DNA of 62,861 nucleotides, counting the filler, from Craspedostauros australis (lineage: Eukaryota): the NCBI GenBank assembly GCA_030167865.1. It is 13 parts of 13 records of this genome, joined end to end, with 100 filler letters (N's around TTAATTAATTAA, not from the genome) between each part and the next. Parts side by side here need not be neighbours in the genome. Positions count along the whole stretch, not along the records: positions 17,749 to 21,816 come from JALAGF010004272.1; positions 21,917 to 25,894 come from JALAGF010004273.1; 11 more parts are not named here. One strand, given 5' to 3'. Positions within the stretch are counted from its first letter, which is position 1, and every line of letters starts with the position of its first letter. Both the position numbers and the translations under genes were made by a program. This document shows, one piece after another, positions 4,630 through 46,727 of the stretch. The notes under the pieces are model-generated. The model had not been told where the DNA came from. It ran no database searches and saw only the letters and a list, made by a program, of their open reading frames with translations.

Positions 4630-4669
4630 AATTCGCTCCAACTACTCGGACAACATCTGCAACATGTAG

Positions 4670-6827: not shown

Positions 6828-6953
6828 NNNNNNNNNNNNNNNNNNNNNNNNNNNNNNNNNNNNNNNNNNNNTTAATTAATTAANNNNNNNNNNNNNNNNN
6901 NNNNNNNNNNNNNNNNNNNNNNNNNNNATGAACGAACGAACGAACGAACTCAC

Positions 6954-9215
6954 GTTTGCATCTCTCCCTTTCCTTTGGCTTCCACCAGACCTTCACGCTT
7001 GATCAGCCAGTGTCCCTTGCCGCAGGTCCTCACAACCTCAGCAGCTTCGGATGACAAATGGATGCGGCCAACCGCACCGGTATGTTCGATGCGGGATGCG
7101 GTGTTCATGGTGTCGCCGAACAGCTGGAAGCGAGCACGTTCTCCACGCAGGACGCCGGCGGTGACCGGCCCGGAATGGATACCGATGCGCAGCGACAGGT
7201 CCCCTGTGTCCGGGCCCAATGTGATCTCGAGCTGCTTCGTGATGTAATCCATTCGTTGCAGGATGTCGCGTGCGAATCGCACCATCACGATGGCATGATC
7301 CTTCCTGTACTCTGGAATGCCAGACGCGGCGACGTAACAGTCACCAACAGTTTCGACCTTGAAGACTCGTCGCACGTTGGCCAGTTCATCGAAGGACGAG
7401 AACACGGTTTCCAACAGAGTGAACACTTGTGACGGCTCTACATGTTGCAGATGTTGTCCGAGTAGTTGGAGCGAATTTGGTTGTTGCAATGGTTGGATGG
7501 GAACGTAAAATAGATGATGATGAGCGAGGGATTTCATAGACTGACAGACTGACGGCACAGCACTGCACTGTTTGAAATAGATCCTGCCCCATGAAGATCC
7601 AACTTTCCTTCCTTCCTTCCATCCACACATACACATTGCATATTCCACACTGCACATCGCACATTGCACATCGCAGATCACTCGATGTTTGGCTCCATCC
7701 CACTCACCTCGCACGGAACTCCACGCCGTGAAGCCCGCAATATCAGCAAACAGAATGGTCGTCTCCAAGAACAGATCTGCCAATGGTTTGTCGTTGCGAC
7801 CCAGCACCGATGTCGACGACGATGCATTGTCGACGTTGCCATTCATGACGGACTTCAAGTTGGAGCGACGTCGGCGGCCGAGGTGACTGCCACCGACCAA
7901 ATCGTCATCGTTCTTCTTGGCATCGCCATTCTGCTGCGCATTCAGTGCGATCAACCGATCGCGGATGTTCTCTGGGAACAAGGACGAGACGATTGCGTTG
8001 GAACGAGCTGCGTTGGCGATGAGCTTTTCGTTGCGGCGTTGCACAAACATATCATAAACGAAGAAGACGACGGCGACGAGGACGAATGTGCACGCGATGA
8101 CAGCCGCGAAGATTTCCGGGATGATCTCATCCGAATTCTTGAACAGCTTGGTGGATGGGTAGATGTGCAGAGAGTAGCGGCAGTGTCCCGGTGTGGTTTC
8201 AAAATCCGGGTGCGTTGCGAGGGACAAGTCGTAGACTTCCTCCGAATCGTCGAAGCTACGCTCGTGGATGTCACCTGCACAGGCATAATCGAAGTGGAAT
8301 GGAATCAATGGCATTGCAATGAAGTTGACATGACGTGAAATGGAGTATTATAGAATGCAAAGAAGATGAACGTGAGAACATGGCAAGGATATAACGCGGA
8401 GGACCCTGTCACTCGACACACACATGACGATTCATAAACAACCCCACACGTACCTTCCCCAAGATAATTGACGTTGCCGCCATCGATCTCGTATGTCACA
8501 GCATCGCCGCAGGAATTCTGGATGACACACACGATGCCCTTGGCATCATCCGGCAGAACATCTCGAAAGGCCCCGTTCCAATCAATGGCAGCACCGATGA
8601 CGCCCACCACATTCGTCTTCTCGAGCGTGTCATGGATCGGAACCCAGACGACGGAATGCGGGTGATCCGCTTCGTGGCTGTGGCTGTGAACGTCGTCCTC
8701 GTTATTGCTCGTGGCATCATGCTCAAGTTCATGCTCATGCTCATGTTCGCTATCGTGTTCATGCTCATGTTCATGCTCATCATGCGATTTCGCCTCGCGG
8801 TTGAACTCCAACTCGGATGGACGGACAGAGGTGCGCTGGGTGCTGGACGGAAAGACGTCGGCATTCGAAAAGAAAGTACCGTAGACTGTCTGCGTTTTCA
8901 TTTGCAATAGCGCCTCGAGAATAGGAGCGCTCGTTGTGATGGCGTTGAAATTGATGAAGGATGCATCCAAAGGTGGTGGTGAGAACTCGAGCGCCGGTAG
9001 GTAGAGGTCTCGGTCGGTGACGTCCGGAACCGGTTGCTGCGGTTTGTCACCGATCGCGGCATCATCTGCGGCGGGATTGGATGTGCTTGCATCGATCATT
9101 GTCCATGCAGGAGCGGTGATGAAATCGTGATAGTTGTAACTGCCCGTGGCTGTCTCGGAAGTCGTCTCATTCTTCAACGCGTCGATGGTTCCATGAAAGA
9201 TCCTGTGCGATTCCT
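6954..9215 (-). CDS. Receptor-type cyclase, 5'/middle part of the same gene: extracellular sensor region, TM helix, cyclase; exons <9215-8454, 8274-7708, 7437-6954
   Basis: Splicing restores YLGEG|DIHE and WSSVR|EPSQVFTLLE at GT-AG sites. TM helix IFAAVIACTFVLVAVVFFVY; motif TILFADIAGFTAWSS. 6928-7477 is the reverse complement of 4630-5179. Confidence 0.88.
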
Positions 9216-16750: not shown

Positions 16751-18733
16751 CTTGCTCTTGCTTTTGCTGTTGAGTTGGATAGAGTATCTGCTCTTGCCTT
16801 TGCTGCTGTTTGTGATCTTTTATGATTATTGTCCGTGTTGTCAGAGGCGTTGCCGTTTGTGAAGGCGCTCCTGTTTGTGAAGGTGCTGTCTGCCATCGTG
16901 ACGAAGAGACACAAAGATAGGCACAAGAGGATCTTCTTCTCCATGCAATTGCACGAGTTCCTTCACTTTGCGGACACTTGTGCTGTGCATCCACACCACC
17001 CATTTGATGTCTGTTTGATGCGGTTTGTCAACTTTCTTGTCATGAAGAAACACTTTCTCACTCGTGATTGCCAGAATTCCTTCCATTTCCTTCACTTCGT
17101 TCATCCCAATGTAGAGTACGCACCGGAACTCCGATTTCGAGCGCGAACGTCGACAGAGATGTGACAATAGTGCGTACTCTTACGAATAGCAGCTCTGCTT
17201 CCATGGCTTCTCGGGGGGCAGTTCAAAATGCAATAATTGGCTCTATTTCATAGCGTTTAAGTCATAAATCGCTTGTTTCCGCCTAGTTCTTATCCTCGAC
17301 GGAATAATATGGCATTTTNGTTNNTTTTTGGATAATTGGTGCTTTCCCCCCAAAATTCGCCCGAGTTGCTTTCGCTCTTCGTCATTGCTCCATTTCCCCA
17401 CTTTACACTGTGTCGGTGTTTGCTGAGCGTGTTTTCGTCTCCGGTCCGCGCAAAACAAGGCTGCTGTCTTGGGCCAGCGCAGAGCACACAAAACTCACAA
17501 CCCCAACACTCTCCACAGAGATCATTGCTCCACAGAGCACTTCGTTCCTGTTACAATCACAATCACAACCACAACCACAACCACAACAATAACAACAACA
17601 ACAGGTACACCAACATCACCACTGCAACAGTGTTTCGTCCATGGGTGGNNNNNNNNNNNNNNNNNNNNNNNNNNNNNNNNNNNNNNNNNNNNTTAATTAA
17701 TTAANNNNNNNNNNNNNNNNNNNNNNNNNNNNNNNNNNNNNNNNNNNNTGCCATCAAAGACCGCAATGAATGAAGGGCAGCGACCATCAATGAACGATGG
17801 ACGAAACGCACAACAAACGAGCAAAGAGCGGCCACCCGTCGGTGGTTTTTCAACAACACAACAGCATCGGCACACTCAGCAAGCACGGTTTCCACGCGCG
17901 CAAATGACGGTGTTGCCTCCGAGGACACCTCTGTTCTCACAAAATCAATCGACCGCCAGATTGCAGATCTCCACAAAACAACGTTGAGAAACAATTGAAC
18001 GGTGATCACAAGTCCATCCGAGACCAGAACAAGCAACACTGCAAAGGTACGACCACCCTCTCAGCGGAATAAAATGATGCTCTGCATGATAGCATGACGG
18101 GTCCGACGAGGCAATGACGCGAAGCCCGCAACGAACGCACACCCACGCGGTGCACATGTCGCGAGACGCAGCAACCTGCACTTCATGAAGTGAAGCACCC
18201 TGCTCTTCCGCAAAATACCCTGCGTCATTCCGATGGCGTGATCATACCATTCCTGCAGAAGCTTCACTGTCTCTACCCCCACCTTGTTCGTGCGCATCAT
18301 CTTCCTACTCGGCCCACTCAGCTCAGCCCGACTCACGCCGCCCTGCCCAATGCTTTCTTTTCTTTTCGTCCCGCTCGTTCCGTCCTGCGCGCCGATTCTT
18401 ACCTTCGGCATTATCAACAACTCGCGACGCGAACGAACGACGCGCCATCGTTGGTTTCTTTCGTTCTACAACTACGATGGTCACACTCGTGCGTTGGACG
18501 CTAACCCGTTCGGACTCGGCATGCGCGCCAACAACCTTCTTACAAACGGCACCGCTCACGCTGCTCCACTTGCTGGCTTGATGCCCCGTGGATACCCACT
18601 ACTCTAATTGGACTCGTCCAATGCGTACGATGCGTGCATATCTCGCAATCTCCCGCTTGATCCGGCTTCATCTGCATCCACCACGAACACGAACTATAGA
18701 ACACGCGACTGAACCAACCAAGAAACAGCAAAG

Positions 18734-21700
18734 ATGGTGAACTTCAAGGTGGCCCTCGCGGCTTTGCTCTTGCTCGACAGCATGCCGAAAGCCCAAGCTG
18801 CACTGCGTGGGAACAGACTCCTCGTGGACCCAATGGATGAACTGCAGTTGATCATGAGGTCCACCCGCATGCTCAAGGACAACGTCAACGACGGCACGAA
18901 GTCCATTAAGCAGGTCAAGACCAACAACCCACCAACGGGCAACGAGCCTGACGTGGAGTCGTCGCCACCCACCGCATTGCCGACTGGATCGCCTACCGCA
19001 ACACCGAACGTCGCCTCCAGCTCCTCCCCGAGCGAAGCAGCGACGGACCCGCCGATGACCGCTCCCACATCTGCGCCGACTTCCTCACCGACAGCCGCAC
19101 CGACAATGCCCCCCGTCCCTCAGCCAACCTCGCAGCCCACACTCGAACCGACATCTGCCCCCGTCGACTTTGATTCCTCCCTCTTCATCATCTGCCGACC
19201 AGATGGCGCAACTGTCTTGACGCGAGACGAAGCACGTGGCAAGACCATCATCTGCGATGCCCGCAAGGAATCGTGCCGCGAGGCCCTGGCCGCCGTCAAG
19301 GCATCTTCGGACCTGCAGAACTTTTTCGCGTGTGCAGGAAACCTTGGCGAAGGAGCGGCACGCAGGCTGTTCAATCGCTACGCCATGAACCCGAACCTCG
19401 TCGAGCAACTCAAGGACGTGGCTGCCTCCCGAACCGCCCTCATCACGGAACGAACTGATGAGATCAAGGCCACCTGCATGACCATCGGGATGTCCCGGTC
19501 GCCGCCGGAAGGCAGCCCATGCTGTCAAGGATCTTCTGGATGCGTGGCAACGGCCGTTTCTAAAGAATCTCCTGCCCCTTTCATGACCGTTGCTCTCACC
19601 GCGTGCACTGGCGATGAAGCATGCAAGGACATGGGACTCAATCCTCTCATTCTGGGTTCTGCATGCACCGGCGTGGGTGCGTGCAAGGAAATGAACAAGA
19701 ACGACGTCGATCCTGTGACCTCAGGCGTCACCTTCGTTGGCACGGTATCATGCACCAGCGCCGGATCATGCGAGGGAGTCGGCCATCTATCCTACGGTGA
19801 TGTCGCCATCATGGATAGGTCTTGCCTCGGCTCGAATGCATGCAACGCAGCTGGACGACGTACCGCTCAGTTCTCCGCGATCCGCACGCAGAGCCATATC
19901 GACATCGGACCGAATGCTTGCGTTGGCAGCGAGGCCTGCAAGGACTTCCATTCCACCGTTAATCGTGTAACTGGTGGGAAGGCCATGGGCAGTCTGTCGA
20001 TCGGTGATCGCGCCTGTTCCCGTCGCGCCTCATGCACCGAAGTCGGGTTCAGCGATGCGATGCTGACGGACATCATTGTCCCTCCAAGTACTTGCGATAG
20101 CGTCGACAGCTGCCGTGGATGCATGACGGTCTCGTCATGCAACCGCGACGAGGTGTACCTCATCAGCGACGCTGAAGGCGCCTGTCCGAAGGGGGGCAAC
20201 AGCAACCAGCCAACTGGAGAGAAGGTAACCGATTACTGCATCGGAAAGGACACTCTTCCGACTGAATGTCCGACTTTCTCTCCTACGCCGTTCCCCACTC
20301 CTCTCGCGTCATCCAATCCGTCGGATCTCCCATCGCAGCTGCCATCTGGTCTACCGTCGATGCAGCCGTCTGATGTGCCGTCTGATATTCCAAGCGAAGT
20401 ACCCTCAATCTCACAGGCGCCGTCCGAACGCCCATCAGATCTGCCGTCTGTGCAGCCATCCGAACGCCCTTCAGATCTGCCGTCTTCGCAACCGTCCGAT
20501 TTGCCGTCTGCCATGCCGAGCTCACAGCCTTCGGATCTCCCTTCGCAGAGTCCATCGGATGTACCGTCCCAAATGCCCAGCGCCGTTCTTTCGGAGAGGC
20601 CTTCTGATATCCCGAGCTCAATGCCGTCCGATTCACCGAGCTTCATACCTACGAGAACCACAGCCCCGTCCGATCGGCCGTCCGATCAACCATCCCTTGA
20701 ACCAACCCAGCAACCATCGGAAGGCCCGAGTATGGCGCCTACGGACTCCCAGGCTCCCTCCGAAGCATCTGCTTCCCCGACCGCCCCTCCGGCTTCTTTC
20801 CAGGCTGGATGCATCACGAATCCCCAAAGTTTCAACCAAGTCATCGCTGATGTTGCTGGTGAGGTTACTTGCGATGAACCAACAGGGCCGTGTGCAGACT
20901 TTGTCAACGGCATGAACGCTTTACCAACCAGGAAGGCAAACATGGTCAAGAGCATTTTTTCATGCAGCGACGGCAAGCCGCCAAGAGCATATCCTCTGTC
21001 AATTGTTCAGCAACAATTCGACAAGATCAGGGACGATCCAGTCGTGACCAAAGCCATACTCACAACAGTGGCAACCAAGGATATATTCACTGGCGATACC
21101 AACGTCCTCGCGAGTGCATGCCAGTATAAAGACTGTTGCACCGGGACATCCGCTTGCACCACCAGCAGTCTCGGCGCGCCTATGACAGTGAGCGAAGGGT
21201 CCTGCAAGGGTGACGCGGCCTGCGCTGGTTTCAGCGTGTTTGGCATCGCCCTTGAGAGTTGCAACGGCGCCAGAGCCTGCCTCAACTTGGGCAAGTACTC
21301 TTTTCGTACCAGTCCTGAGAACAGTGGCTTCAGGCTGATCGAACCAGGTGCGTGTAATGGTGACAACAGTTGCGAAAATCTTGGCCGCAACGTGAACGGC
21401 AACATAAGAATTGAGAAAGGGGCTTGCGATGGAACCAACGCATGCCTAAATCTTTCGAACCGTCCTGGTCAAAACAGATCACCCGTGGTGAAGAACGATG
21501 TAATGCTTGGACCGAGCGCATGCGATGGAGAGTCCGCTTGCGAAGACATCCACGCAGGCAATAACAAATTCCCTGGAGGCGTCGCCATCAACAAGAATGG
21601 CTGCAAAGGAGACAACGTGTGCAAGGGTATTGCCAATGACAATCTATCGATCAGCGACATCGTCATCGAGGAGGGTGTCTGCAATGCGGATAATGGCGAG

Positions 21701-21811
21701 AGCTGTGAGGACTGCGTGATTGCACAACCGTGTACTCCTGCTTCGCTGACATACACCATCGACGACGCGAGCGAGGACTGCCCCACCGCCAGCGCAGGTG
21801 GCTGCAGCTAA
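18734..21811 (+). CDS. Large secreted Cys-rich repeat (CxGxxAC) / Pro-Ser-Thr mucin-like protein, version A (1025 aa)
   Basis: Intronless ORF with signal peptide and LRG/RLL/RML propeptide-like motifs. Two modules, each a PT or PSxxPS stalk, a Cys-containing helical part and about 6-8 [SA]CxGxxAC repeats. Confidence 0.9.
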   Translation: MVNFKVALAALLLLDSMPKAQAALRGNRLLVDPMDELQLIMRSTRMLKDNVNDGTKSIKQVKTNNPPTGNEPDVESSPPTALPTGSPTATPNVASSSSPSEAATDPPMTAPTSAPTSSPTAAPTMPPVPQPTSQPTLEPTSAPVDFDSSLFIICRPDGATVLTRDEARGKTIICDARKESCREALAAVKASSDLQNFFACAGNLGEGAARRLFNRYAMNPNLVEQLKDVAASRTALITERTDEIKATCMTIGMSRSPPEGSPCCQGSSGCVATAVSKESPAPFMTVALTACTGDEACKDMGLNPLILGSACTGVGACKEMNKNDVDPVTSGVTFVGTVSCTSAGSCEGVGHLSYGDVAIMDRSCLGSNACNAAGRRTAQFSAIRTQSHIDIGPNACVGSEACKDFHSTVNRVTGGKAMGSLSIGDRACSRRASCTEVGFSDAMLTDIIVPPSTCDSVDSCRGCMTVSSCNRDEVYLISDAEGACPKGGNSNQPTGEKVTDYCIGKDTLPTECPTFSPTPFPTPLASSNPSDLPSQLPSGLPSMQPSDVPSDIPSEVPSISQAPSERPSDLPSVQPSERPSDLPSSQPSDLPSAMPSSQPSDLPSQSPSDVPSQMPSAVLSERPSDIPSSMPSDSPSFIPTRTTAPSDRPSDQPSLEPTQQPSEGPSMAPTDSQAPSEASASPTAPPASFQAGCITNPQSFNQVIADVAGEVTCDEPTGPCADFVNGMNALPTRKANMVKSIFSCSDGKPPRAYPLSIVQQQFDKIRDDPVVTKAILTTVATKDIFTGDTNVLASACQYKDCCTGTSACTTSSLGAPMTVSEGSCKGDAACAGFSVFGIALESCNGARACLNLGKYSFRTSPENSGFRLIEPGACNGDNSCENLGRNVNGNIRIEKGACDGTNACLNLSNRPGQNRSPVVKNDVMLGPSACDGESACEDIHAGNNKFPGGVAINKNGCKGDNVCKGIANDNLSISDIVIEEGVCNADNGESCEDCVIAQPCTPASLTYTIDDASEDCPTASAGGCS

Positions 21812-22901
21812 ACATCNNNNNNNNNNNNNNNNNNNNNNNNNNNNNNNNNNNNNNNNNNNNTTAATTAATTAANNNNNNNNNNNNNNNNNNNNNNNNNNNN
21901 NNNNNNNNNNNNNNNNTGCCATCAAAGACCGCAATGAATGAAGGGCAGCGACCATCAATGAACGATGGACGAAACGCACAACAAACGAGCAAAGAGCGGC
22001 CACCCGTCGGTGGTTTTTCAACAACACAACAGCATCGGCACACTCAGCAAGCACGGTTTCCACGCGCGCAAATGACGGTGTTGCCTCCGAGGACACCTCT
22101 GTTCTCACAAAATCAATCGACCGCCAGATTGCAGATCTCCACAAAACAACGTTGAGAAACAATTGAACGGTGATCACAAGTCCATCCGAGACCAGAACAA
22201 GCAACACTGCAAAGGTACGACCACCCTCTCAGCGGAATAAAATGATGCTCTGCATGATAGCATGACGGGTCCGACGAGGCAATGACGCGAAGCCCGCAAC
22301 GAACGCACACCCACGCGGTGCACATGTCGCGAGACGCAGCAACCTGCACTTCATGAAGTGAAGCACCCTGCTCTTCCGCAAAATACCCTGCGTCATTCCG
22401 ATGGCGTGATCATACCATTCCTGCAGAAGCTTCACTGTCTCTACCCCCACCTTGTTCGTGCGCATCATCTTCCTACTCGGCCCACTCAGCTCAGCCCGAC
22501 TCACGCCGCCCTGCCCAATGCTTTCTTTTCTTTTCGTCCCGCTCGTTCCGTCCTGCGCGCCGATTCTTACCTTCGGCATTATCAACAACTCGCGACGCGA
22601 ACGAACGACGCGCCATCGTTGGTTTCTTTCGTTCTACAACTACGATGGTCACACTCGTGCGTTGGACGCTAACCCGTTCGGACTCGGCATGCGCGCCAAC
22701 AACCTTCTTACAAACGGCACCGCTCACGCTGCTCCACTTGCTGGCTTGATGCCCCGTGGATACCCACTACTCTAATTGGACTCGTCCAATGCGTACGATG
22801 CGTGCATATCTCGCAATCTCCCGCTTGATCCGGCTTCATCTGCATCCACCACGAACACGAACTATAGAACACGCGACTGAACCAACCAAGAAACAGCAAA
22901 G

Positions 22902-25889
22902 ATGGTGAACTTCAAGGTGGCCCTCGCGGCTTTGCTCTTGCTCGACAGCATGCCGAAAGCCCAAGCTGCACTGCGTGGGAACAGACTCCTCGTGGACCCA
23001 ATGGATGAACTGCAGTTGATCATGAGGTCCACCCGCATGCTCAAGGACAACGTCAACGACGGCACGAAGTCCATTAAGCAGGTCAAGACCAACAACCCAC
23101 CAACGGGCAACGAGCCTGACGTGGAGTCGTCGCCACCCACCGCATTGCCGACTGGATCGCCTACCGCAACACCGAACGTCGCCTCCAGCTCCTCCCCGAG
23201 CGAAGCAGCGACGGACCCGCCGATGACCGCTCCCACATCTGCGCCGACTTCCTCACCGACAGCCGCACCGACAATGCCCCCCGTCCCTCAGCCAACCTCG
23301 CAGCCCACACTCGAACCGACATCTGCCCCCGTCGACTTTGATTCCTCCCTCTTCATCATCTGCCGACCAGATGGCGCAACTGTCTTGACGCGAGACGAAG
23401 CACGTGGCAAGACCATCATCTGCGATGCCCGCAAGGAATCGTGCCGCGAGGCCCTGGCCGCCGTCAAGGCATCTTCGGACCTGCAGAACTTTTTCGCGTG
23501 TGCAGGAAACCTTGGCGAAGGAGCGGCACGCAGGCTGTTCAATCGCTACGCCATGAACCCGAACCTCGTCGAGCAACTCAAGGACGTGGCTGCCTCCCGA
23601 ACCGCCCTCATCACGGAACGAACTGATGAGATCAAGGCCACCTGCATGACCATCGGGATGTCCCGGTCGCCGCCGGAAGGCAGCCCATGCTGTCAAGGAT
23701 CTTCTGGATGCGTGGCAACGGCCGTTTCTAAAGAATCTCCTGCCCCTTTCATGACCGTTGCTCTCACCGCGTGCACTGGCGATGAAGCATGCAAGGACAT
23801 GGGACTCAATCCTCTCATTCTGGGTTCTGCATGCACCGGCGTGGGTGCGTGCAAGGAAATGAACAAGAACGACGTCGATCCTGTGACCTCAGGCGTCACC
23901 TTCGTTGGCACGGTATCATGCACCAGCGCCGGATCATGCGAGGGAGTCGGCCATCTATCCTACGGTGATGTCGCCATCATGGATAGGTCTTGCCTCGGCT
24001 CGAATGCATGCAACGCAGCTGGACGACGTACCGCTCAGTTCTCCGCGATCCGCACGCAGAGCCATATCGACATCGGACCGAATGCTTGCGTTGGCAGCGA
24101 GGCCTGCAAGGACTTCCATTCCACCGTTAATCGTGTAACTGGTGGGAAGGCCATGGGCAGTCTGTCGATCGGTGATCGCGCCTGTTCCCGTCGCGCCTCA
24201 TGCACCGAAGTCGGGTTCAGCGATGCGATGCTGACGGACATCATTGTCCCTCCAAGTACTTGCGATAGCGTCGACAGCTGCCGTGGATGCATGACGGTCT
24301 CGTCATGCAACCGCGACGAGGTGTACCTCATCAGCGACGCTGAAGGCGCCTGTCCGAAGGGGGGCAACAGCAACCAGCCAACTGGAGAGAAGGTAACCGA
24401 TTACTGCATCGGAAAGGACACTCTTCCGACTGAATGTCCGACTTTCTCTCCTACGCCGTTCCCCACTCCTCTCGCGTCATCCAATCCGTCGGATCTCCCA
24501 TCGCAGCTGCCATCTGGTCTACCGTCGATGCAGCCGTCTGATGTGCCGTCTGATATTCCAAGCGAAGTACCCTCAATCTCACAGGCGCCGTCCGAACGTC
24601 CATCAGATCTGCCGTCTGTGCAGCCGTCCGAACGCCCGTCAGATCTGCCGTCTGTGCAACCGTCCGATTTGCCGTCTGCCATGCCGAGCTCACAGCCTTC
24701 GGATCTCCCTTCGCAGAGTCCATCGGATTTGCCGTCCCAAACGCCCAGCGCGGTTCTTTCGGAGAGGCCGTCTGATATCCCGAGCTCAATGCCGTCGGAT
24801 GGCCCGAGTATGGCGCCTAGGGCCTCCCAGGCTCCCTCCGAAGCATCTGCTTCCCCGACCGCCCTTCCGCCTTCTTTCCAGGCTGGATGTATCACGAATC
24901 CCGGAAGTTTCACACAAAGCGTCACTGATGTTGCTGGTGAGGTTACCTGTGATGAACCAACAGGAACGTGTGCAGACTTTGTCAACGGCATAAACGCTTT
25001 GCCAACCAAGAAGGCAAACATGGTCAAGAGCATTTTTGCATGCAGCGACGGCAACCCGCCAACAGCAAATTCTCTGTCAATTGTTCAGCAACAATTCGAC
25101 AAGATCAGGGACGATCCAGTCGTGACTAAAGCCATACTCACAACAGTGGCAACCAAGGAGCTATACACTGGCGGTACCATCGTCCTCTTGAGTACATGCC
25201 ACTTTAAAGACTGTTGCACCGGGTCACTCGCTTGCACCACCAGCAGAAACGGCGCGCCTATGACAGTGAGCGAAGGGTCCTGCAACGGTGACGCGGCCTG
25301 CGCTGGTTTCAGCGTGTTTGGCATCGCCCTTGAGAGTTGCAACGGCGCCAGAGCCTGCCTCAACTTGGGCAAGTACTCTTTTCGTACCAGTCCTGAGAAC
25401 AGTGGCTTCAGGCTGATCGAACCAGGTGCGTGTAATGGTGACAACAGTTGCGAAAATCTTGGCCGCAACGTGAACGGCAACATAAGAATTGAGAAAGGGG
25501 CTTGCGATGGAACCAACGCATGCCTAAATCTTTCGAACCGTCCTGGTCAAAACAGATCACCCGTGGTGAAGAACGATGTAATGCTTGGACCGAGCGCATG
25601 CGATGGAGAGTCCGCTTGCGAAGACATCCACGCAGGCAATAACAAATTCCCTGGAGGCGTCGCCATCAACAAGAATGGCTGCAAAGGAGACAACGTGTGC
25701 AAGGGTATTGCCAATGACAATCTATCGATCAGCGACATCGTCATCGAGGAGGGTGTCTGCAATGCGGATAATGGCGAGAGCTGTGAGGACTGCGTGATTG
25801 CACAACCGTGTACTCCTGCTTCGCTGACATACACCATCGACGACGCGAGCGAGGACTGCCCCACCGCCAGCGCAGGTGGCTGCAGCTAA
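22902..25889 (+). CDS. Same protein, version B (995 aa)
   Basis: Translation identical to version A except in 24599-25286 (30-aa shorter PS stalk plus many substitutions). Confidence 0.9.
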   Translation: MVNFKVALAALLLLDSMPKAQAALRGNRLLVDPMDELQLIMRSTRMLKDNVNDGTKSIKQVKTNNPPTGNEPDVESSPPTALPTGSPTATPNVASSSSPSEAATDPPMTAPTSAPTSSPTAAPTMPPVPQPTSQPTLEPTSAPVDFDSSLFIICRPDGATVLTRDEARGKTIICDARKESCREALAAVKASSDLQNFFACAGNLGEGAARRLFNRYAMNPNLVEQLKDVAASRTALITERTDEIKATCMTIGMSRSPPEGSPCCQGSSGCVATAVSKESPAPFMTVALTACTGDEACKDMGLNPLILGSACTGVGACKEMNKNDVDPVTSGVTFVGTVSCTSAGSCEGVGHLSYGDVAIMDRSCLGSNACNAAGRRTAQFSAIRTQSHIDIGPNACVGSEACKDFHSTVNRVTGGKAMGSLSIGDRACSRRASCTEVGFSDAMLTDIIVPPSTCDSVDSCRGCMTVSSCNRDEVYLISDAEGACPKGGNSNQPTGEKVTDYCIGKDTLPTECPTFSPTPFPTPLASSNPSDLPSQLPSGLPSMQPSDVPSDIPSEVPSISQAPSERPSDLPSVQPSERPSDLPSVQPSDLPSAMPSSQPSDLPSQSPSDLPSQTPSAVLSERPSDIPSSMPSDGPSMAPRASQAPSEASASPTALPPSFQAGCITNPGSFTQSVTDVAGEVTCDEPTGTCADFVNGINALPTKKANMVKSIFACSDGNPPTANSLSIVQQQFDKIRDDPVVTKAILTTVATKELYTGGTIVLLSTCHFKDCCTGSLACTTSRNGAPMTVSEGSCNGDAACAGFSVFGIALESCNGARACLNLGKYSFRTSPENSGFRLIEPGACNGDNSCENLGRNVNGNIRIEKGACDGTNACLNLSNRPGQNRSPVVKNDVMLGPSACDGESACEDIHAGNNKFPGGVAINKNGCKGDNVCKGIANDNLSISDIVIEEGVCNADNGESCEDCVIAQPCTPASLTYTIDDASEDCPTASAGGCS

Positions 25890-25994
25890 ACATCNNNNNN
25901 NNNNNNNNNNNNNNNNNNNNNNNNNNNNNNNNNNNNNNTTAATTAATTAANNNNNNNNNNNNNNNNNNNNNNNNNNNNNNNNNNNNNNNNNNNN

Positions 25995-27691
25995 CGTTCG
26001 GACGGCGCCTGTGAGATTGAGGGTACTTCGCTTGGAATATCAGACGGCACATCAGACGGCTGCATCGACGGTAGACCAGATGGCAGCTGCGATGGGAGAT
26101 CCGACGGATTGGATGACGCGAGAGGAGTGGGGAACGGCGTAGGAGAGAAAGTCGGACATTCAGTCGGAAGAGTGTCCTTTCCGATGCAGTAATCGGTTAC
26201 CTTCTCTCCAGTTGGCTGGTTGCTGTTGCCCCCCTTCGGACAGGCGCCTTCAGCGTCGCTGATGAGGTACACCTCGTCGCGGTTGCATGACGAGACCGTC
26301 ATGCATCCACGGCAGCTGTCGACGCTATCGCAAGTACTTGGAGGGACAATGATGTCCGTCAGCATCGCATCGCTGAACCCGACTTCGGTGCATGAGGCGC
26401 GACGGGAACAGGCGCGATCACCGATCGACAGACTGCCCATGGCCTTCCCACCAGTTACACGATTAACGGTGGAATGGAAGTCCTTGCAGGCCTCGCTGCC
26501 AACGCAAGCATTCGGTCCGATGTCGATATGGCTCTGCGTGCGGATCGCGGAGAACTGAGCGGTACGTCGTCCAGCTGCGTTGCATGCATTCGAGCCGAGG
26601 CAAGACCTATCCATGATGGCGACATCACCGTAGGATAGATGGCCGACTCCCTCGCATGATCCGGCGCTGGTGCATGATACCGTGCCAACGAAGGTGACGC
26701 CTGAGGTCACAGGATCGACGTCGTTCTTGTTCATTTCCTTGCACGCACCCACGCCGGTGCATGCAGAACCCAGAATGAGAGGATTGAGTCCCATGTCCTT
26801 GCATGCTTCATCGCCAGTGCACGCGGTGAGAGCAACGGTCATGAAAGGGGCAGGAGATTCTTTAGAAACGGCCGTTGCCACGCATCCAGAAGATCCTTGA
26901 CAGCATGGGCTGCCTTCCGGCGGCGACCGGGACATCCCGATGGTCATGCAGGTGGCCTTGATCTCATCAGTTCGTTCCGTGATGAGGGCGGTTCGGGAGG
27001 CAGCCACGTCCTTGAGTTGCTCGACGAGGTTCGGGTTCATGGCGTAGCGATTGAACAGCCTGCGTGCCGCTCCTTCGCCAAGGTTTCCTGCACACGCGAA
27101 AAAGTTCTGCAGGTCCGAAGATGCCTTGACGGCGGCCAGGGCCTCGCGGCACGATTCCTTGCGGGCATCGCAGATGATGGTCTTGCCACGTGCTTCGTCT
27201 CGCGTCAAGACAGTTGCGCCATCTGGTCGGCAGATGATGAAGAGGGAGGAATCAAAGTCGACGGGGGCAGATGTCGGTTCGAGTGTGGGCTGCGAGGTTG
27301 GCTGAGGGACGGGGGGCATTGTCGGTGCGGCTGTCGGTGAGGAAGTCGGCGCAGATGTGGGAGCGGTCATCGGCGGGTCCGTCGCTGCTTCGCTCGGGGA
27401 GGAGCTGGAGGCGACGTTCGGTGTTGCGGTAGGCGATCCAGTCGGCAATGCGGTGGGTGGCGACGACTCCACGTCAGGCTCGTTGCCCGTTGGTGGGTTG
27501 TTGGTCTTGACCTGCTTAATGGACTTCGTGCCGTCGTTGACGTTGTCCTTGAGCATGCGGGTGGACCTCATGATCAACTGCAGTTCATCCATTGGGTCCA
27601 CGAGGAGTCTGTTCCCACGCAGTGCAGCTTGGGCTTTCGGCATGCTGTCGAGCAAGAGCAAAGCCGCGAGGGCCACCTTGAAGTTCACCAT
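25995..27691 (-). CDS. Same protein, 5' part (contig-truncated), attached to upstream haplotype 1
   Basis: Identical N-terminal translation. The contig ends exactly where versions A and B start to differ. Confidence 0.85.
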
Positions 27692-28790
27692 CTTTGCTGT
27701 TTCTTGGTTGGTTCAGTCGCGTGTTCTATAGTTCGTGTTCGTGGTGGATGCAGATGAAGCCGGATCAAGCGGGAGATTGCGAGATATGCACGCATCGTAC
27801 GCATTGGACGAGTCCAATTAGAGTAGTGGGTATCCACGGGGCATCAAGCCAGCAAGTGGAGCAGCGTGAGCGGTGCCGTTTGTAAGAAGGTTGTTGGCGC
27901 GCATGCCGAGTCCGAACGGGTTAGCGTCCAACGCACGAGTGTGACCATCGTAGTTGTAGAACGAAAGAAACCAACGATGGCGCGTCGTTCGTTCGCGTCG
28001 CGAGTTGTTGATAATGCCGAAGGTAAGAATCGGCGCGCAGGACGGAACGAGCGGGACGAAAAGAAAAGAAAGCATTGGGCAGGGCGGCGTGAGTCGGGCT
28101 GAGCTGAGTGGGCCGAGTAGGAAGATGATGCGCACGAACAAGGTGGGGGTAGAGACAGTGAAGCTTCTGCAGGAATGGTATGATCACGCCATCGGAATGA
28201 CGCAGGGTATTTTGCGGAAGAGCAGGGTGCTTCACTTCATGAAGTGCAGGTTGCTGCGTCTCGCGACATGTGCACCGCGTGGGTGTGCGTTCGTTGCGGG
28301 CTTCGCGTCATTGCCTCGTCGGACCCGTCATGCTATCATGCAGAGCATCATTTTATTCCGCTGAGAGGGTGGTCGTACCTTTGCAGTGTTGCTTGTTCTG
28401 GTCTCGGATGGACTTGTGATCACCGTTCAATTGTTTCTCAACGTTGTTTTGTGGAGATCTGCAATCTGGCGGTCGATTGATTTTGTGAGAACAGAGGTGT
28501 CCTCGGAGGCAACACCGTCATTTGCGCGCGTGGAAACCGTGCTTGCTGAGTGTGCCGATGCTGTTGTGTTGTTGAAAAACCACCGACGGGTGGCCGCTCT
28601 TTGCTCGTTTGTTGTGCGTTTCGTCCATCGTTCATTGATGGTCGCTGCCCTTCATTCATTGCGGTCTTTGATGGCAATCTTTGATTGGAGTCCTCAGCAA
28701 CTTGCAGCGGCGATCTCTGTCTGCGTGTTCACGTGACCATTGGTTTGCCATCGACAACTGTGGACCAAGAAATGGTTGGTGAGGGTGAGG

Positions 28791-29211
28791 GTGGTTTGAG
28801 CCAAACGCGCAATCGATCATTTTTCGCGGTTCTCTCTTCTCGGCCGGGGCCCAACAAAACATCAGAGCGATGTGGTGGTTTGCGCCAAACGCGCAATCGA
28901 TCATTTTTCACGGTTCTCTCTTCTCGGCCGGGGCCCAACAAAACATCAGAGCGATGTGGTGGTTTGCGCCAAACGCGCAATCGATCATTTTTCGCGGTTC
29001 TCTCTTCTCGGCCGGGGCCCAACAAAACATCAGAGCGATGTGGTGGTTTGCGCCAAACGCGCAATCGATCATTTTTCACGGTTCTCTCTTCTCGGCCAGG
29101 GCCCAACAAAACATCAGGGCGATGTGGTGGTTTGCGCCAAACGCGCAATCGATCATTTTTCACGGTTCTCTCTTCTCGGCCGGGGCGCAACAAAACATCA
29201 GGGCGATGTGG
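28791..29211. repeat. 84-bp tandem repeat, 5 copies (VNTR)
   Basis: CCAAACGCGCAATCGATC recurs at 28801, 28885, 28969, 29053 and 29137. The homologous region at ~32280-32362 has one unit. Confidence 0.95.
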
Positions 29212-29479
29212 TCATGACAAATGAGAAGTGCCGTGTTGGTGCCGATCCGACGAGAGAACTACTTTTGCAAGTAAATAGCCTGCGACTATTTCCTTCTTAA
29301 GAGCCCATTCAGTCACAAACCAACGAGTCGCGGGGGGAGCAGTCTACATGCGTTTTCAGGTTATTGCAGAATATTATGCNNNNNNNNNNNNNNNNNNNNN
29401 NNNNNNNNNNNNNNNNNNNNNNNTTAATTAATTAANNNNNNNNNNNNNNNNNNNNNNNNNNNNNNNNNNNNNNNNNNNN

Positions 29480-31176
29480 CGTTCGGACGGCGCCTGTGAG
29501 ATTGAGGGTACTTCGCTTGGAATATCAGACGGCACATCAGACGGCTGCATCGACGGTAGACCAGATGGCAGCTGCGATGGGAGATCCGACGGATTGGATG
29601 ACGCGAGAGGAGTGGGGAACGGCGTAGGAGAGAAAGTCGGACATTCAGTCGGAAGAGTGTCCTTTCCGATGCAGTAATCGGTTACCTTCTCTCCAGTTGG
29701 CTGGTTGCTGTTGCCCCCCTTCGGACAGGCGCCTTCAGCGTCGCTGATGAGGTACACCTCGTCGCGGTTGCATGACGAGACCGTCATGCATCCACGGCAG
29801 CTGTCGACGCTATCGCAAGTACTTGGAGGGACAATGATGTCCGTCAGCATCGCATCGCTGAACCCGACTTCGGTGCATGAGGCGCGACGGGAACAGGCGC
29901 GATCACCGATCGACAGACTGCCCATGGCCTTCCCACCAGTTACACGATTAACGGTGGAATGGAAGTCCTTGCAGGCCTCGCTGCCAACGCAAGCATTCGG
30001 TCCGATGTCGATATGGCTCTGCGTGCGGATCGCGGAGAACTGAGCGGTACGTCGTCCAGCTGCGTTGCATGCATTCGAGCCGAGGCAAGACCTATCCATG
30101 ATGGCGACATCACCGTAGGATAGATGGCCGACTCCCTCGCATGATCCGGCGCTGGTGCATGATACCGTGCCAACGAAGGTGACGCCTGAGGTCACAGGAT
30201 CGACGTCGTTCTTGTTCATTTCCTTGCACGCACCCACGCCGGTGCATGCAGAACCCAGAATGAGAGGATTGAGTCCCATGTCCTTGCATGCTTCATCGCC
30301 AGTGCACGCGGTGAGAGCAACGGTCATGAAAGGGGCAGGAGATTCTTTAGAAACGGCCGTTGCCACGCATCCAGAAGATCCTTGACAGCATGGGCTGCCT
30401 TCCGGCGGCGACCGGGACATCCCGATGGTCATGCAGGTGGCCTTGATCTCATCAGTTCGTTCCGTGATGAGGGCGGTTCGGGAGGCAGCCACGTCCTTGA
30501 GTTGCTCGACGAGGTTCGGGTTCATGGCGTAGCGATTGAACAGCCTGCGTGCCGCTCCTTCGCCAAGGTTTCCTGCACACGCGAAAAAGTTCTGCAGGTC
30601 CGAAGATGCCTTGACGGCGGCCAGGGCCTCGCGGCACGATTCCTTGCGGGCATCGCAGATGATGGTCTTGCCACGTGCTTCGTCTCGCGTCAAGACAGTT
30701 GCGCCATCTGGTCGGCAGATGATGAAGAGGGAGGAATCAAAGTCGACGGGGGCAGATGTCGGTTCGAGTGTGGGCTGCGAGGTTGGCTGAGGGACGGGGG
30801 GCATTGTCGGTGCGGCTGTCGGTGAGGAAGTCGGCGCAGATGTGGGAGCGGTCATCGGCGGGTCCGTCGCTGCTTCGCTCGGGGAGGAGCTGGAGGCGAC
30901 GTTCGGTGTTGCGGTAGGCGATCCAGTCGGCAATGCGGTGGGTGGCGACGACTCCACGTCAGGCTCGTTGCCCGTTGGTGGGTTGTTGGTCTTGACCTGC
31001 TTAATGGACTTCGTGCCGTCGTTGACGTTGTCCTTGAGCATGCGGGTGGACCTCATGATCAACTGCAGTTCATCCATTGGGTCCACGAGGAGTCTGTTCC
31101 CACGCAGTGCAGCTTGGGCTTTCGGCATGCTGTCGAGCAAGAGCAAAGCCGCGAGGGCCACCTTGAAGTTCACCAT
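29480..31176 (-). CDS. Same protein, 5' part (contig-truncated), attached to upstream haplotype 2
   Basis: Identical N-terminal translation and the same truncation point. Confidence 0.85.
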
Positions 31177-33243
31177 CTTTGCTGTTTCTTGGTTGGTTCA
31201 GTCGCGTGTTCTATAGTTCGTGTTCGTGGTGGATGCAGATGAAGCCGGATCAAGCGGGAGATTGCGAGATATGCACGCATCGTACGCATTGGACGAGTCC
31301 AATTAGAGTAGTGGGTATCCACGGGGCATCAAGCCAGCAAGTGGAGCAGCGTGAGCGGTGCCGTTTGTAAGAAGGTTGTTGGCGCGCATGCCGAGTCCGA
31401 ACGGGTTAGCGTCCAACGCACGAGTGTGACCATCGTAGTTGTAGAACGAAAGAAACCAACGATGGCGCGTCGTTCGTTCGCGTCGCGAGTTGTTGATAAT
31501 GCCGAAGGTAAGAATCGGCGCGCAGGACGGAACGAGCGGGACGAAAAGAAAAGAAAGCATTGGGCAGGGCGGCGTGAGTCGGGCTGAGCTGAGTGGGCCG
31601 AGTAGGAAGATGATGCGCACGAACAAGGTGGGGGTAGAGACAGTGAAGCTTCTGCAGGAATGGTATGATCACGCCATCGGAATGACGCAGGGTATTTTGC
31701 GGAAGAGCAGGGTGCTTCACTTCATGAAGTGCAGGTTGCTGCGTCTCGCGACATGTGCACCGCGTGGGTGTGCGTTCGTTGCGGGCTTCGCGTCATTGCC
31801 TCGTCGGACCCGTCATGCTATCATGCAGAGCATCATTTTATTCCGCTGAGAGGGTGGTCGTACCTTTGCAGTGTTGCTTGTTCTGGTCTCGGATGGACTT
31901 GTGATCACCGTTCAATTGTTTCTCAACGTTGTTTTGTGGAGATCTGCAATCTGGCGGTCGATTGATTTTGTGAGAACAGAGGTGTCCTCGGAGGCAACAC
32001 CGTCATTTGCGCGCGTGGAAACCGTGCTTGCTGAGTGTGCCGATGCTGTTGTGTTGTTGAAAAACCACCGACGGGTGGCCGCTCTTTGCTCGTTTGTTGT
32101 GCGTTTCGTCCATCGTTCATTGATGGTCGCTGCCCTTCATTCATTGCGGTCTTTGATGGCAGTCTTTGATTAGAGTCCTCAGCAACTTGCAGCGCGACCC
32201 ATGTCTGCGTGTTCACGCGACCATTGGTTTGTCATTGGCAAAATGATGACAACTGTGGACCAAGAGATGATTGGTGAGGGTGGTTTGCGCCAAACGCGCA
32301 CTCGATCATTTCTCACGGTTCTCTCCTCGGTCGGGGCCTAACAAAACATGAGGGCGATGTGGTCACGACAAATGAGAAGTGCCGTGTTGGTGCCGATCCG
32401 GCGAGAGAACTACTTGTGCAAGTAAATAGCCTGCGACTATTTCCTTCTTAAATGCCCTTGCGAAAAGACGTTCATCAATTGCCCTCGGGAATGAGTACCA
32501 TGGCAATACTTATGCTAGAATAGCTCGAAAGTACGGCGCTCCACACGGAGTGGTCCCATTCTGCACTTCACCATTTCGTGACCAACGCCGATTGGAAGAC
32601 GTCATTCGAAGACATGCCGAAGGTAGAAGCGTCCCAGTCCCAGGGTTGACACATGCCGTGCGTCAAAGTGATTGCGTCTTCGTTGTTGTGGGTATGCACA
32701 CGGCGATCGCGTAACGGTTGGCTCATCGGACGATGTGTTGGACATCCTCCGACGAAGAGGAAGCACTCCGGCAAAATAAGACGACAGGCTCATCAGTCGA
32801 CTAAGAGCACTGTAGGAAAGGAGTAGTGCACTATTCGAACTCCATCACCATGAATCAACATTGTCAGAAGTGGTGGCAGCAGCAACACTAGCAGTAGCAC
32901 TAGCAGCAGCAGCAAGAAGGAGACGATTTTCGCCTTGCGTATTGAGTACTGCACCACGAAGGCTGGTCGGCATGGATGTTGCAAAGTCAAAGAACAGAGA
33001 GCAGAAGAGAGTTGAGTATTGTATCAAGTGCGAACTGCTCGGACGCGTGTGGTGATGCTTGGCGCCAACACTCGCTTCTTCTCTTTCCACAGGGGCTTCC
33101 GGTAAACTGCCGGACATGGGAAGTCGGACATACTGTTCGCGAACTGAAGAACAATACTAGTCGTGTATGCGATTTTATTAGTCATGGTTGTCATGTCCTT
33201 CAGACATTCTCGTCGCGACTCGCGACTCGTATCTGTATGGTGT

Positions 33244-33445
33244 CAAAAGATGCCCTATTTAGGGCACCTTTTTCAAAACGTGCTCTAAATAGGGCACCTT
33301 TTCAAAACGTGCCCTATTTAGGGCATCTTTTCAAAACGTGCTCTAAATAGGGCACCTTTTCAAAACGTGCTCTAAATAGGGCATCTTTTCAAAACGTGCT
33401 CTAAATAGGGCACCTTTTCAAAACGTGCCCTATTTAGGGCACGTT
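33244..33445. repeat. Tandem array of a 29-bp palindromic unit (~7 copies)
   Basis: Unit CAAAACGTGC(C/T)CTA(TTT/AAT)AGGGCA(CC/TC)TTTT, contiguous, with no spacers. Confidence 0.92.
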
Positions 33446-33705
33446 GCCCTCGCACCCACGTGTCGCTGTTCGGAGACAGCCAGATGACAGACGGAGCAGC
33501 AGCAACCCCGCACGCAGCGACACGACAGTGGAGGATTATCAACGTCGCGTCAATTCAACGTGACAGCAACTGCACAGGACTGTGCAACACTCTGCTTGCG
33601 CTGGGACTGCCAAAGTCAATGCTGAAACATGAGGGAGGTGGCTCCACATGAACCAAACACATTGCCACAAACCAAGCAACCAACACCCATCTGCAACCGT
33701 GCAGT

Positions 33706-34088
33706 CATGAACCCAACAATACAGTTCACCCATCATGAAGCCATGATGCTTGGCTTGCGCCTGCTGTACACCGACAAGCAGATCAATCGAGTCAAGGCTG
33801 GGAGCAACACCAACGCCAACCGGTTTCGAGCTCACTTTGGTGTATCCCCGGCAGTATGCTGCCAAGTCTTCGAGGATCTCCAGACAACAAAAGTGGCTGC
33901 TGCCAGAATGGATCCATCAACCATCAAAGTAGAGCGATTGCTGATGGCCCTTCACTTCATCAAGACATATCAGACAGAGGATGGACGAGAGGCAACATTC
34001 GCCTTGAGCTCAAAGACTCTTCGAGCACACACATGGCACTATCTTGAGAAGGTGCAAGCTCTGAAAGCCCAAAAGATCATTTGGCCAG
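33706..34088 (+). mobile_element. PIF/Harbinger-like (DDE_Tnp_4/ISL2EU-type) transposase, N-terminal part, contig-truncated
   Basis: RFRAHFGVSP...LLMALHFIKTYQTE...SSKTLRAHTWHYLEKVQALKAQKIIWP matches the helix-turn-helix region preceding the DDE domain in this family. Confidence 0.7.
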
Positions 34089-43460: not shown

Positions 43461-45341
43461 CGCTTGTGGGCTCGCCTCCAGTTGCACTTCGGGCGCACAG
43501 CTCCACTGTCGTGGTTGCGCTGTTTGATCTTCTCACAGCACCAACGGGATCACTACACACAGGAGGCGTCACATGACCATGGCGTTGCCATCGCCGTTGT
43601 TGCGTCGTGCTGGATCTTCGCTCATCGTTCATGCGTTTGTTGGAGTGTTCGTCGTTGTTGATTGAATTCGTGAATGGTTTCGTTCCATCTTTTTCATTCT
43701 CAACACGACTCACATCCAACAAAACGAAGAACAAGAAAGAGAAAGAAGATTGCGTTCGTGTTGGTCGCGGATCAGATTAGGCTGTCCGACATCGAAGCAG
43801 GATTGTTGACAAAACACGGTCATTGACGAAACAAAGGAAACGGGGCATCAACACATTAACACTTGCACACACACACCAACACATCAACGCTTGCGCAAAG
43901 ATACGGATGCGGTTGGCATGTCCCCATCGCGCTTCTCACTCCCTTGTTGCATGCCCTCTCTGACTTCGTCACTCCACTTCCAAGTATTCTACGAGACATC
44001 TTGTGAGCTCCTCCCCAAGCCTCATCTCGGCATCGTTTGGATGGTCATCGCTGCTGGGTGTTGCGAATCAGAGAATCAAAGCAGGTGCGACGCATTGCAA
44101 TACTCGTATGTACATACAGCTGCATTGTGTAAATTGAAGCATGGCTGACCGTGGACTTAATAACTGTCTGATCGATCCTTCTTCGACATCACGACGGTTG
44201 CTATACCACGGGACATTGAACTCAGCGATGGTGTTGATCGTTGCGGCTGCGTGGCATGGCTTCACGTTGGATGCATTCGCATGCGTGCACGTTAGCCGAC
44301 GACCACGCAGCATGTGGCACACGTCACGCGATATGACCCATGGCACAGATTTTGCAAGGCATTGATGGACTGATTGCGTACGAGTATGTATGTGATACCA
44401 CCATGATGATGGGTTGCACTGACCCTACGTTCGTACCTCTCTACTTCTCTCTGCATACCGAATTGAACCATGCACATACGAGGGTGCATAGCATGCAAAG
44501 GCATCGTCGATATCGATGACGAGAGTGTCTATCAATAGCTGGCGGCGGTTGTTAGCATCGAGACGAGATGGATGTTCAACGGTGAAGTGCGACAAGAAGC
44601 TGCAATGGGACACACGTGGTTCTCATAGAGTGTGCTGCTGAGTGTCATCCGCTGCATCACTGTCGGTTTGGATGGAAGAGGAAGAGATGAATGGATGTGT
44701 TGTGCTGTCGAGTTCCTGATTATTATTGGTGCCACTCAGTTCTGAGATCGAACACCAGGGGGTCCACCCACGCACCGAAGGGACGAGAACGGCCCGAAAA
44801 GAAGACAGCCGACCTGTGTAAATCAGCAACAAACATGAAACAGGCGAAATGGTGCATTCGCAAGTTGGTGGTTGATGCGAGGTGTTTCAACTCACGCTGC
44901 CTTCATTGTGCGCTCTAATGGTAGTCGCAATGAAAGGAATTAGAGCAGGTTGATTGCCGTCCTCCATCGCAAAGTTGTAGACAGAGGTCATCCTTCATCA
45001 TCATCTTGCTTGCTTCGGCGTGGTAGATGGTCATCGTCCAAGTCCATGATACCAATACAACGGTATATAGATAGAAATGAAGTCAAAAGATAGAACTGCC
45101 ACAACTCCCATCGTTCACGAAGGAACACGACACAAACACAAGAACATAGCAGCGAGGTTGGACAGGACAACACGTGATCTCACAACTCAGCTGAACCCAA
45201 CCCACTACACAAGAGATCATCAAGATTGCGACAAGGTTTGTGGGGAGGAGCTTACGACACATGATCCTTTCTGGCCTTCATCTTGTGTAATACAAGAGAA
45301 AGAGAAAGGCAAACGAAGGCACACAAGCAAGGAGACGAAGG

Positions 45342-46678: not shown

Positions 46679-46727
<49 letters not shown>

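Follow-up and report, generated by a model that had tools for sequence, protein, structure and literature searches.

Introduction

Diversified repertoires of solenoid or Cys-rich surface proteins include the leucine-rich repeats (LRRs) of plant NLRs, the lamprey VLRs, the Giardia VSPs and the ciliate immobilisation antigens, and in NLR and VSP-type families such patterns usually result from an arms race with biotic partners. For diatoms, the means by which the cell surface recognises or evades viruses, parasites and bacteria are, to our knowledge, still largely an open question. The nearest described protein to those considered here is CaFAP1, a mucin-like frustule-associated glycoprotein of the diatom Craspedostauros australis (Poulsen et al. 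2023, via 10.1101/2023.03.06.531300), which is set beside them by description only. We analysed two genes, A and B, in a window of 62,861 nucleotides (the whole stretch of C. australis DNA studied, filler included; GenBank assembly GCA_030167865.1), which a preliminary description had presented as two versions of one surface protein, identical except for a sharply bounded hypervariable cassette. A and B belong to a very large, undescribed family of diatom proteins, whose signal-like N-termini suggest that they are secreted. With a probability of about 65%, we favour the reading that A and B are dispersed paralogues, made alike by gene conversion, within this secreted family of more than 100 members, and that the diversifying part of these proteins is their C-terminal module.

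Results

Copy A is a single-exon open reading frame (ORF) of 1025 aa (18734–21811, contig C4272, window 17749–21816) and copy B an ORF of 995 aa (22902–25889, contig C4273, window 21917–25894), both on the + strand. The window consists of separate contigs strung together with 100-base spacers (N44-TTAATTAATTAA-N44, no strand, at 21817–21916 and also at 17649, 25895, 29380, 34089 and seven other sites), and A and B are not adjacent. In A, a probable signal peptide (aa 1–22, 18734–18799), judged by eye from its hydrophobic core and AxA end and resembling N-termini across the family, is followed by a first Pro/Thr/Ser-rich (PTS) linker recognised in the sequence (aa 65–145, 18926–19168), by an N-module containing 27 Cys (aa 146–515, 19169–20278), by a Pro/Ser stalk matching the Pfam PT repeat (aa 516–690, 20279–20803) and by a DUF7640-like C-module containing 26 Cys (aa 691–1025, 20804–21808), made of a helical cap and a predicted beta-solenoid, all on the + strand. 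The two modules are homologous (probability 100%, E 2e-42, 25% identity), the N-module being the conserved copy and the C-module the diversified one.

The C-module of A matches at least 116 other places in the genome at 30–43% identity (120 scored of 404 candidates), and its N-module at least 107 other loci at 49–67% identity (111 scored of 401 candidates), the union amounting to at least 157 further places. Retrieval of 140 of these gave, with A and B, 142 loci for pair comparisons (L-numbers designate loci in this genome, P-numbers outside proteins); about eight of the 140 are overlapping pieces of the same gene, four are without a long frame and several are frameshifted. Joining two overlapping loci did not improve the fit to proteins labelled C. 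australis (355/372). Most members are single-exon ORFs of about 900–1150 aa with a signal-like start, a PTS linker, an N-module, a stalk of 22–557 codons (range across 55 members) and a C-module. No C-terminal membrane anchor was seen in the 40 of 97 C-termini inspected, all of which stop a few residues past the last Cys, without a hydrophobic tail. There are also 14 short members (376–412 aa; L132, L136, L141, L153–L155, L158, L159, L164, L165, L167, L169, L171 and L176), composed of a signal peptide and the variable C-module alone; transcriptome proteins match L155. Two further members, L138 and L139, are inverted at both ends of a 19.4-kb contig (G000:C4971), the last 924 bp being identical and continuing into C3913.

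Outside this genome, a HMMER scan of 1.84 billion representative sequences returned 32 proteins, four of them at E ≤ 1e-30, and the clusters at this level include one labelled Craspedostauros australis in UniRef and one with a transcriptome protein. The strong outside relatives are 90–99.7% identical to family loci of this genome, and the transcriptome protein indicates that at least some family members are transcribed. Close relatives are confined to records labelled C. australis or unlabelled; weaker matches include Stauroneis constricta proteins, and DUF7640 ties the repeat to other diatoms. Word-seeded protein searches with the C-module of A gave nothing at E ≤ 0.001, and the same type of search with the N-module of another member gave one match. 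A single, weak match to a PDB sequence (E 0.028) was rejected. No paper describing the family or DUF7640 was found by a literature search whose coverage excluded most subscription papers.

Our results on the family point to a rapid diversification of the C-module by natural selection. The ratio of non-synonymous to synonymous changes (dN/dS) was measured in 20 independent pairs of C-modules at most 15% distant, A/B excluded, with sites ranked on 41 sequences outside these pairs. The C-module set comprises 97 sequences, obtained from 114 by removing 17 N-module cross-matches; a first pooled value of 0.51, affected by these 17, was discarded. The C-module dN/dS is 0.75 overall, 0.10 at the framework sites of the conserved quartile, 1.83 [1.53–2.17] in the variable quartile, where it exceeds 1 in 19 of the 20 pairs, and 2.67 in the top tenth of variable sites. 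The variable-quartile value stays at 1.74–1.89 when gaps are masked or thresholds altered. The N-module serves as a control: its dN/dS is 0.21 [0.20–0.23] in 32 close pairs and 0.48 at its variable sites, and the latter value exceeds 1 in none of 21 pairs.

Codon models agree with these counts. For the C-module, the likelihood ratio test (LRT) statistic is 305 for M2a against M1a, with 14.4% of sites at a dN/dS of 3.98, and 289 for M8 against M8a; the N-module also has a class of this kind, a small one (0.6% of sites, LRT 25). When double and triple substitutions are allowed, the C-module LRT falls to 121, and 13.5% of sites have a dN/dS of 3.24. Under this multi-hit model, 25 sites have a posterior above 0.95, all of them at residues 827–1021 (21212–21796 in A, 25290–25874 in B, + strand), and these 25 sites give 95 distinct signatures among the 97 modules. 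Outside proteins also differ more at selected sites than elsewhere (14/99 vs 73/1243, p 0.004), two of their four partners belonging to the test pairs. The diversifying selection proposed in the preliminary description is thus found in this type of protein, at C-module sites with dN/dS of 3–4, and it is not located in the patch that separates A from B.

The AlphaFold2 model of the C-module (95 sequences; pLDDT 92, pTM 0.92) shows a helical cap (model residues 29–105) and one short strand per repeat of 24–32 residues. Along the repeats, the variable positions keep a common register, CxG-XX-AC-XX-LG-X, and each takes 11–17 residue types; judging from this repeat register, stacked rungs would align them as ridges forming an outward stripe. 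By homology to the C-module, the N-module could adopt the same solenoid fold. The predicted model is best matched by left-handed beta-helix proteins (LpxA/LpxD, gamma-carbonic anhydrase; Z 11.8, rmsd 3.4 Å over 163 residues), a Z below about 13 for repeats possibly reflecting a common arrangement only and implying no shared function. The C-module differs from these proteins by an identity of only 12% and by Cys-paired repeats of 24–32 residues in place of hexapeptides, and no Hexapep family is among the Pfam matches of 95 members. Right-handed beta-helices align to the model at rmsd 10–14 Å, and Foldseek gave no match to it at E ≤ 0.001.

These results bear on a more conservative possibility, to which we give a minor share of credit: the family could form a structural mucilage, lubricant or adhesive coat, whose C-module varies for abiotic reasons (surfaces, glycans) or because constraint is relaxed and mutational artefacts intervene. 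Its alternation of Cys-rich and PTS regions is that reported for CaFAP1, multi-nucleotide changes explain part of the selection signal, and several members are frameshifted. However, relaxed constraint cannot yield a ratio above 1, framework sites are held at 0.10, and the excess survives the multi-hit model and sits in a strict repeat register. An abiotic or glycan ligand combined with true positive selection is compatible with all these data, and glycans or substrates are possible ligands.

The patch in which A and B differ (20431–21208 in A and 24599–25286 in B, + strand) had been correctly delimited. It contains 54 substitutions and an in-frame stalk indel, A having 90 extra bases (30 codons). 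All Cys are kept, and the earlier count of 29 amino-acid-changing against six synonymous-only codons is exact for codons 685–825. This count omits the stalk portion of the patch, where there are three and six such codons, respectively, and where dN/dS before the indel is 0.19 (Nei-Gojobori). The whole differing stretch has 34 amino-acid-changing and 12 synonymous-only codons and a dN/dS of 0.96. A ratio above 1 is obtained in codons 693–825 (pN 0.105, pS 0.072, dN/dS 1.51); with a Fisher p of 0.41, the A/B pair alone gives no demonstration of positive selection.

The family data place the patch on the quiet side of the C-module. Family-wide dN/dS is 0.49–0.61 at residues 691–825 and 0.82–0.93 at residues 826–1025, which makes the former the more constrained half. 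None of the 25 selected sites lies in the patch, all of them falling where A and B are identical; with a model lacking multi-nucleotide changes, two of 34 sites lie in the patch and the rest in the 608-bp block shared downstream of it. Neither are the A/B changes concentrated at family-variable sites (3/37, 7/35, 10/40 and 5/21 by quartile). The patch is not one domain, as had been proposed, since it starts in the middle of the stalk and reaches the second coil of the C-module, nor does it appear as a domain kept diverse. It is not a fixed cassette, and is probably a leftover of gene copying or conversion rather than the part under selection. No donor paralogue could be retained for it: a DNA search matches A and B alone, and protein identity to the other scored members does not exceed 43%.

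We therefore consider very improbable the model first put forward, that of a dedicated hypervariable specificity cassette at a self/non-self or mating locus under balancing selection. It draws on the dN/dS of 1.5, on the conserved Cys and on amino-acid changes in codons 693–825 that exceed the family regional average. It is opposed by the lack of significance against neutrality (Fisher p 0.41; binomial p 0.18–0.31), by the positions of the selected and variable sites, by patch boundaries that are not reused in other pairs and by C-termini in which no anchor was seen. A two-allele locus of self/non-self or mating type also fits poorly because the family is dispersed in more than 100 copies with no membrane anchor shown.

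Outside the patch, A and B are exactly alike over a 2682-bp prefix and a 608-bp suffix, in agreement with the initial estimate of about 2.7 and 0.6 kb. In a self-comparison, the 2682-bp block (985 bp upstream plus codons 1–565; 17749–20430, +) recurs at 21917–24598 (+), 25995–28676 (−) and 29480–32161 (−), i.e., in contigs C4272 (A), C4273 (B) and C4274/C4275, which carry two upstream versions. The 608-bp block (21209–21816, +) recurs at 25287–25894 and, outside the window, in contigs C5731 and C4384, both of which start with it. In all four copies of both blocks, a contig end coincides with the start or end of the block. The identical blocks are assembly-graph nodes written into several contigs, in a layout of fork, shared node, bubble, shared node and fork. 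There are two gene copies, not four.

The clustering of the A/B differences is far beyond chance: at the silent rate of the patch, about 44 synonymous differences would be expected in the identical coding parts, and none is observed. The same patchwork extends to the family, where exact runs of at least 200 bp are common to 49 pairs among the 142 loci. The 64 inner tract boundaries, contig ends excluded, are dispersed along the gene and are not reused between pairs: 30 lie in the N-module, 12 upstream, eight downstream, six at residues 691–825, five in the stalk and three at residues 826–1025, these labels being approximate for loci without an N-module. L094 and L174 are identical in 5' and diverged in 3', and L181 and L182 show the reverse. 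Gene conversion between diverged copies, as suggested in the preliminary description, is supported by these identity tracts at scattered places. The modules are also shuffled: N and C have a common nearest neighbour in no more than 20 of the 55 genes, and L100 and L172 differ by 7% in their N-modules and by 46% in their C-modules. N and C distances are still correlated overall (Spearman 0.73). Mosaicism is observed, and conversion and module exchange between paralogues would be its source.

Sharp edges could also be produced by the assembler, if A and B differed throughout and everything had been collapsed except the bubble carrying the 90-bp length difference. The identical blocks are indeed single graph nodes ending at contig ends, and the evidence consists of assembled contigs alone. 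Nevertheless, a bubble of equal length, 300 bp with a 10-SNP patch (single-nucleotide polymorphisms), was kept by the assembler in the N-module of L074/L075, which argues against wholesale collapse, even though single SNPs could still be hidden. Few long exact words would be expected between copies at 6–8% divergence, and the patchwork is also seen against the independently assembled proteins P0001 and P0002, the 14 residue differences between P0002 and L097 being all at 706–739 or 1011–1022. We hold such an artefact to be quite improbable, and it would leave the family-level selection result untouched.

In the sequence that adjoins the shared blocks, 27/433 and 18/191 aligned bases differ between the versions. 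Flank and silent-site divergence between A and B is 6–9%, the flank rate resembling the silent rate of the patch. The upstream flanks, already described as diverged, show base differences and then become non-homologous at a transposon end. Both outer flanks break in this manner, one version on each side entering a multi-copy element. Upstream flank 1 (28677–29379, −) contains five 84-bp tandem units (28790–29212), then the end of a multi-copy element after TTAA (29301–29379). Upstream flank 2 (32162–34088, −) contains one 84-bp unit (32279–32363), single-copy DNA (32457–33080) and a multi-copy element with 29/58-bp tandem repeats (33082–33442). The different number of 84-bp units upstream of the gene is a possible regulatory difference between A and B. 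The upstream element is preceded by TTAA or ATAA in the six of six junctions shown. Terminal inverted repeats characterise the downstream element, accompanied in L054 by a 10-bp direct repeat, and we take it to be Mutator-like; L054 holds the full element (about 700 bp, terminal inverted repeats starting with GAGG, 10-bp flanking direct repeat), of which the genome contains at least 30 relatives. We rejected the idea that a composite transposon carries the gene, as the flanking termini come from different elements and adjoin almost no other member (one and three loci of the 140 others).

The alternative flanks run into single-copy DNA without a second copy, which downstream is an EF-3-like gene. 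Downstream of one copy (L006:1445–7343), an EF-3-like HEAT gene, a DUF6824 gene and an ATP-dependent DNA ligase gene are found. In a neighbouring contig, 13.8 of 14.4 kb are without a second copy, i.e., without a second allele. Diverged flanks, breaks at transposon ends and single-copy ordinary DNA together indicate that A and B are probably paralogues.

They could instead be allelic, a single locus having received haplotype-specific transposon insertions and lost the differences outside the patch by mitotic recombination (loss of heterozygosity). Diatoms, this one included, are presumably diploid, and one version per side ends at a transposon terminus, as a hemizygous insertion would. Copy-neutral tracts of such size, 296–8016 bp between homologues, have been reported in P. 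tricornutum (10.1101/2020.11.08.373134), a finding that we also count in favour of conversion. On the other hand, no far junctions of the flank insertions were found in the assembly and the DNA of flank 2 is single-copy on both sides, although the assembly copies shared nodes; ordinary DNA shows no second allele, and the family has many dispersed pairs at 85–95% identity. Allelism is thus unlikely in our view.

Other loci of the window concern different genes. The contig at 34189–39504, whose two ends are the same 1307 bp with a piece of a heme peroxidase gene, probably represents a tandem array that was collapsed, each unit measuring about 4 kb. Two contigs at 4630–9215, with a common inverted 550-bp end, carry a cyclic-nucleotide phosphodiesterase domain (5304–6827) and a cyclase domain (6953–8347, −), and are likely parts of one cyclase-phosphodiesterase gene family split at a shared node. 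A 1341-aa frame at 45291–49316 combines poly-Gln/Asn runs with a dsRNA-binding motif, and an RNA cap guanine-N2 methyltransferase domain is present in a 711-aa frame at 41397–43532. Finally, a 499-aa open frame at 58314–60573, with PTS-type repeats, a 207-bp internal duplication and no Pfam match, encodes a probable mucin-like protein.

Discussion

The cassette itself is ordinary, a conversion remnant seen through the assembly graph. Under the favoured reading of converted paralogues, A and B would have arisen from a duplication of about 5 kb and diverged by about 6–9% at neutral sites; gene conversion would then have made them identical over two tracts (2682 and 608 bp), and the 'cassette' would be the remainder that it missed. 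The proteins of this lineage-specific family may be secreted and are probably O-glycosylated coat or matrix proteins of this benthic diatom. The Pro/Ser stalk, variable in length, would be glycosylated and extended, the constant N-module could hold the protein in the coat or matrix, and the distal C-module would present a variable surface at the CxG-XX-AC-XX-LG-X positions. Duplication would supply copies, conversion and C-module exchange would mix them, and selection would favour new stripes. The result would be a repertoire of binding surfaces, most likely in an arms race with biotic partners such as viruses, parasites or biofilm bacteria.

Several points weigh against this reading. When only single-change codons are counted, dN/dS falls to 1.11 [0.90–1.37] in the top quartile and to 1.44 [1.12–1.86] in the top tenth, and the codon models are a GY94 implementation of our own, applied to pairs whose relative branch lengths were fixed. 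Of the four outside proteins, the two with partners not among the test pairs are little enriched in differences at selected sites (5/49 vs 46/618). Amino-acid change in the A/B patch exceeds the family regional average (32–33 of 39 changes; binomial p 0.002–0.03 against dN/dS 0.49–0.61), in a stretch picked post hoc. Chimeric N/C pairings are possibly in part mis-joins at the repetitive stalk in a short-contig assembly. The A/B evidence comes from assembled contigs, isolated collapsed SNPs are possible in the identical blocks, and expression evidence was not found for A and B themselves.

One could go further and see in the family the diatom's own immune-like or antigenic-variation repertoire, with more than 100 secreted, disulfide-rich beta-solenoids of two modules, a constant module anchoring in the coat, a shuffled and selected twin facing viruses, parasites or biofilm bacteria, and C-only members acting as soluble decoys or effectors. 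We offer this broader picture as a tentative one, somewhat below even odds. The family is new to our literature search and would represent a known kind of system, with a strong and mapped selection signal. With 25 selected sites mapped on a scaffold predicted with confidence, and with its conserved twin module as internal control, it is directly testable. C. australis is a model for biofouling adhesion, in which GFP-tagging was reportedly used in the CaFAP1 study, and a long-read assembly of its genome has been reported (10.1101/2023.03.06.531300). The present case also calls for caution: blocks that are identical and touch contig ends are nodes shared within the assembly, and a stretch left between conversion tracts can mimic a selected cassette.

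Compared with described proteins, A and B have the CaFAP1-type layout of alternating Cys-rich and PTS regions behind a signal peptide, as judged by eye. CaFAP1 is likewise described as secreted, with alternating Cys-rich and PTS regions, and is reported with about 23% PTS repeats and 40% Pro, Thr, Ser and Gly (PTSG) against 25% and 37% in A, the two being compared by description only; like the strong family matches, it is reported from C. australis only. The parts of the CaFAP1 account available to us mention neither a large family nor positive selection (10.1101/2023.03.06.531300), and protein searches with the family modules gave no match named CaFAP1. In Seminavis, lineage-specific expansions are reported, and the accessible part of that report does not mention the present family (PMC7335047). 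Pfam DUF7640 (PF24646) is matched by whole A and B with 34.7 and 31.0 bits, above the gathering score of 28.1, by the C-module of A alone with 27.4 bits, just under it, and by 56 of 95 C-modules at E ≤ 0.01. About 50 of the 121 profile positions match, and the helical cap and doubled-module layout are outside the matched model. In the Atlas, the closest cluster is a DUF7640 cluster made up mostly of diatom proteins (0.88, a lead only).

The family also resembles the NLR LRR, VLR, VSP and immobilisation antigen repertoires, as well as the Trichomonas BspA-like family (PMC2843621), in its large set of paralogues with a conserved framework, its variable positions in repeat register and its conversion and shuffling of copies. 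The Candida Awp1 adhesin (7o9q) aligns to the C-module model with Z 8.7 and rmsd 11.9. The family differs from all these systems in that no sequence homology to them was found and no transmembrane or GPI-type tail was seen in the C-termini inspected, and our analysis gave no evidence of expression switching or somatic rearrangement. It nevertheless constitutes, as VSPs do, a large paralogous repertoire under diversifying selection, and it differs from the other repertoires by carrying, within each two-module protein, a conserved twin of its variable module.

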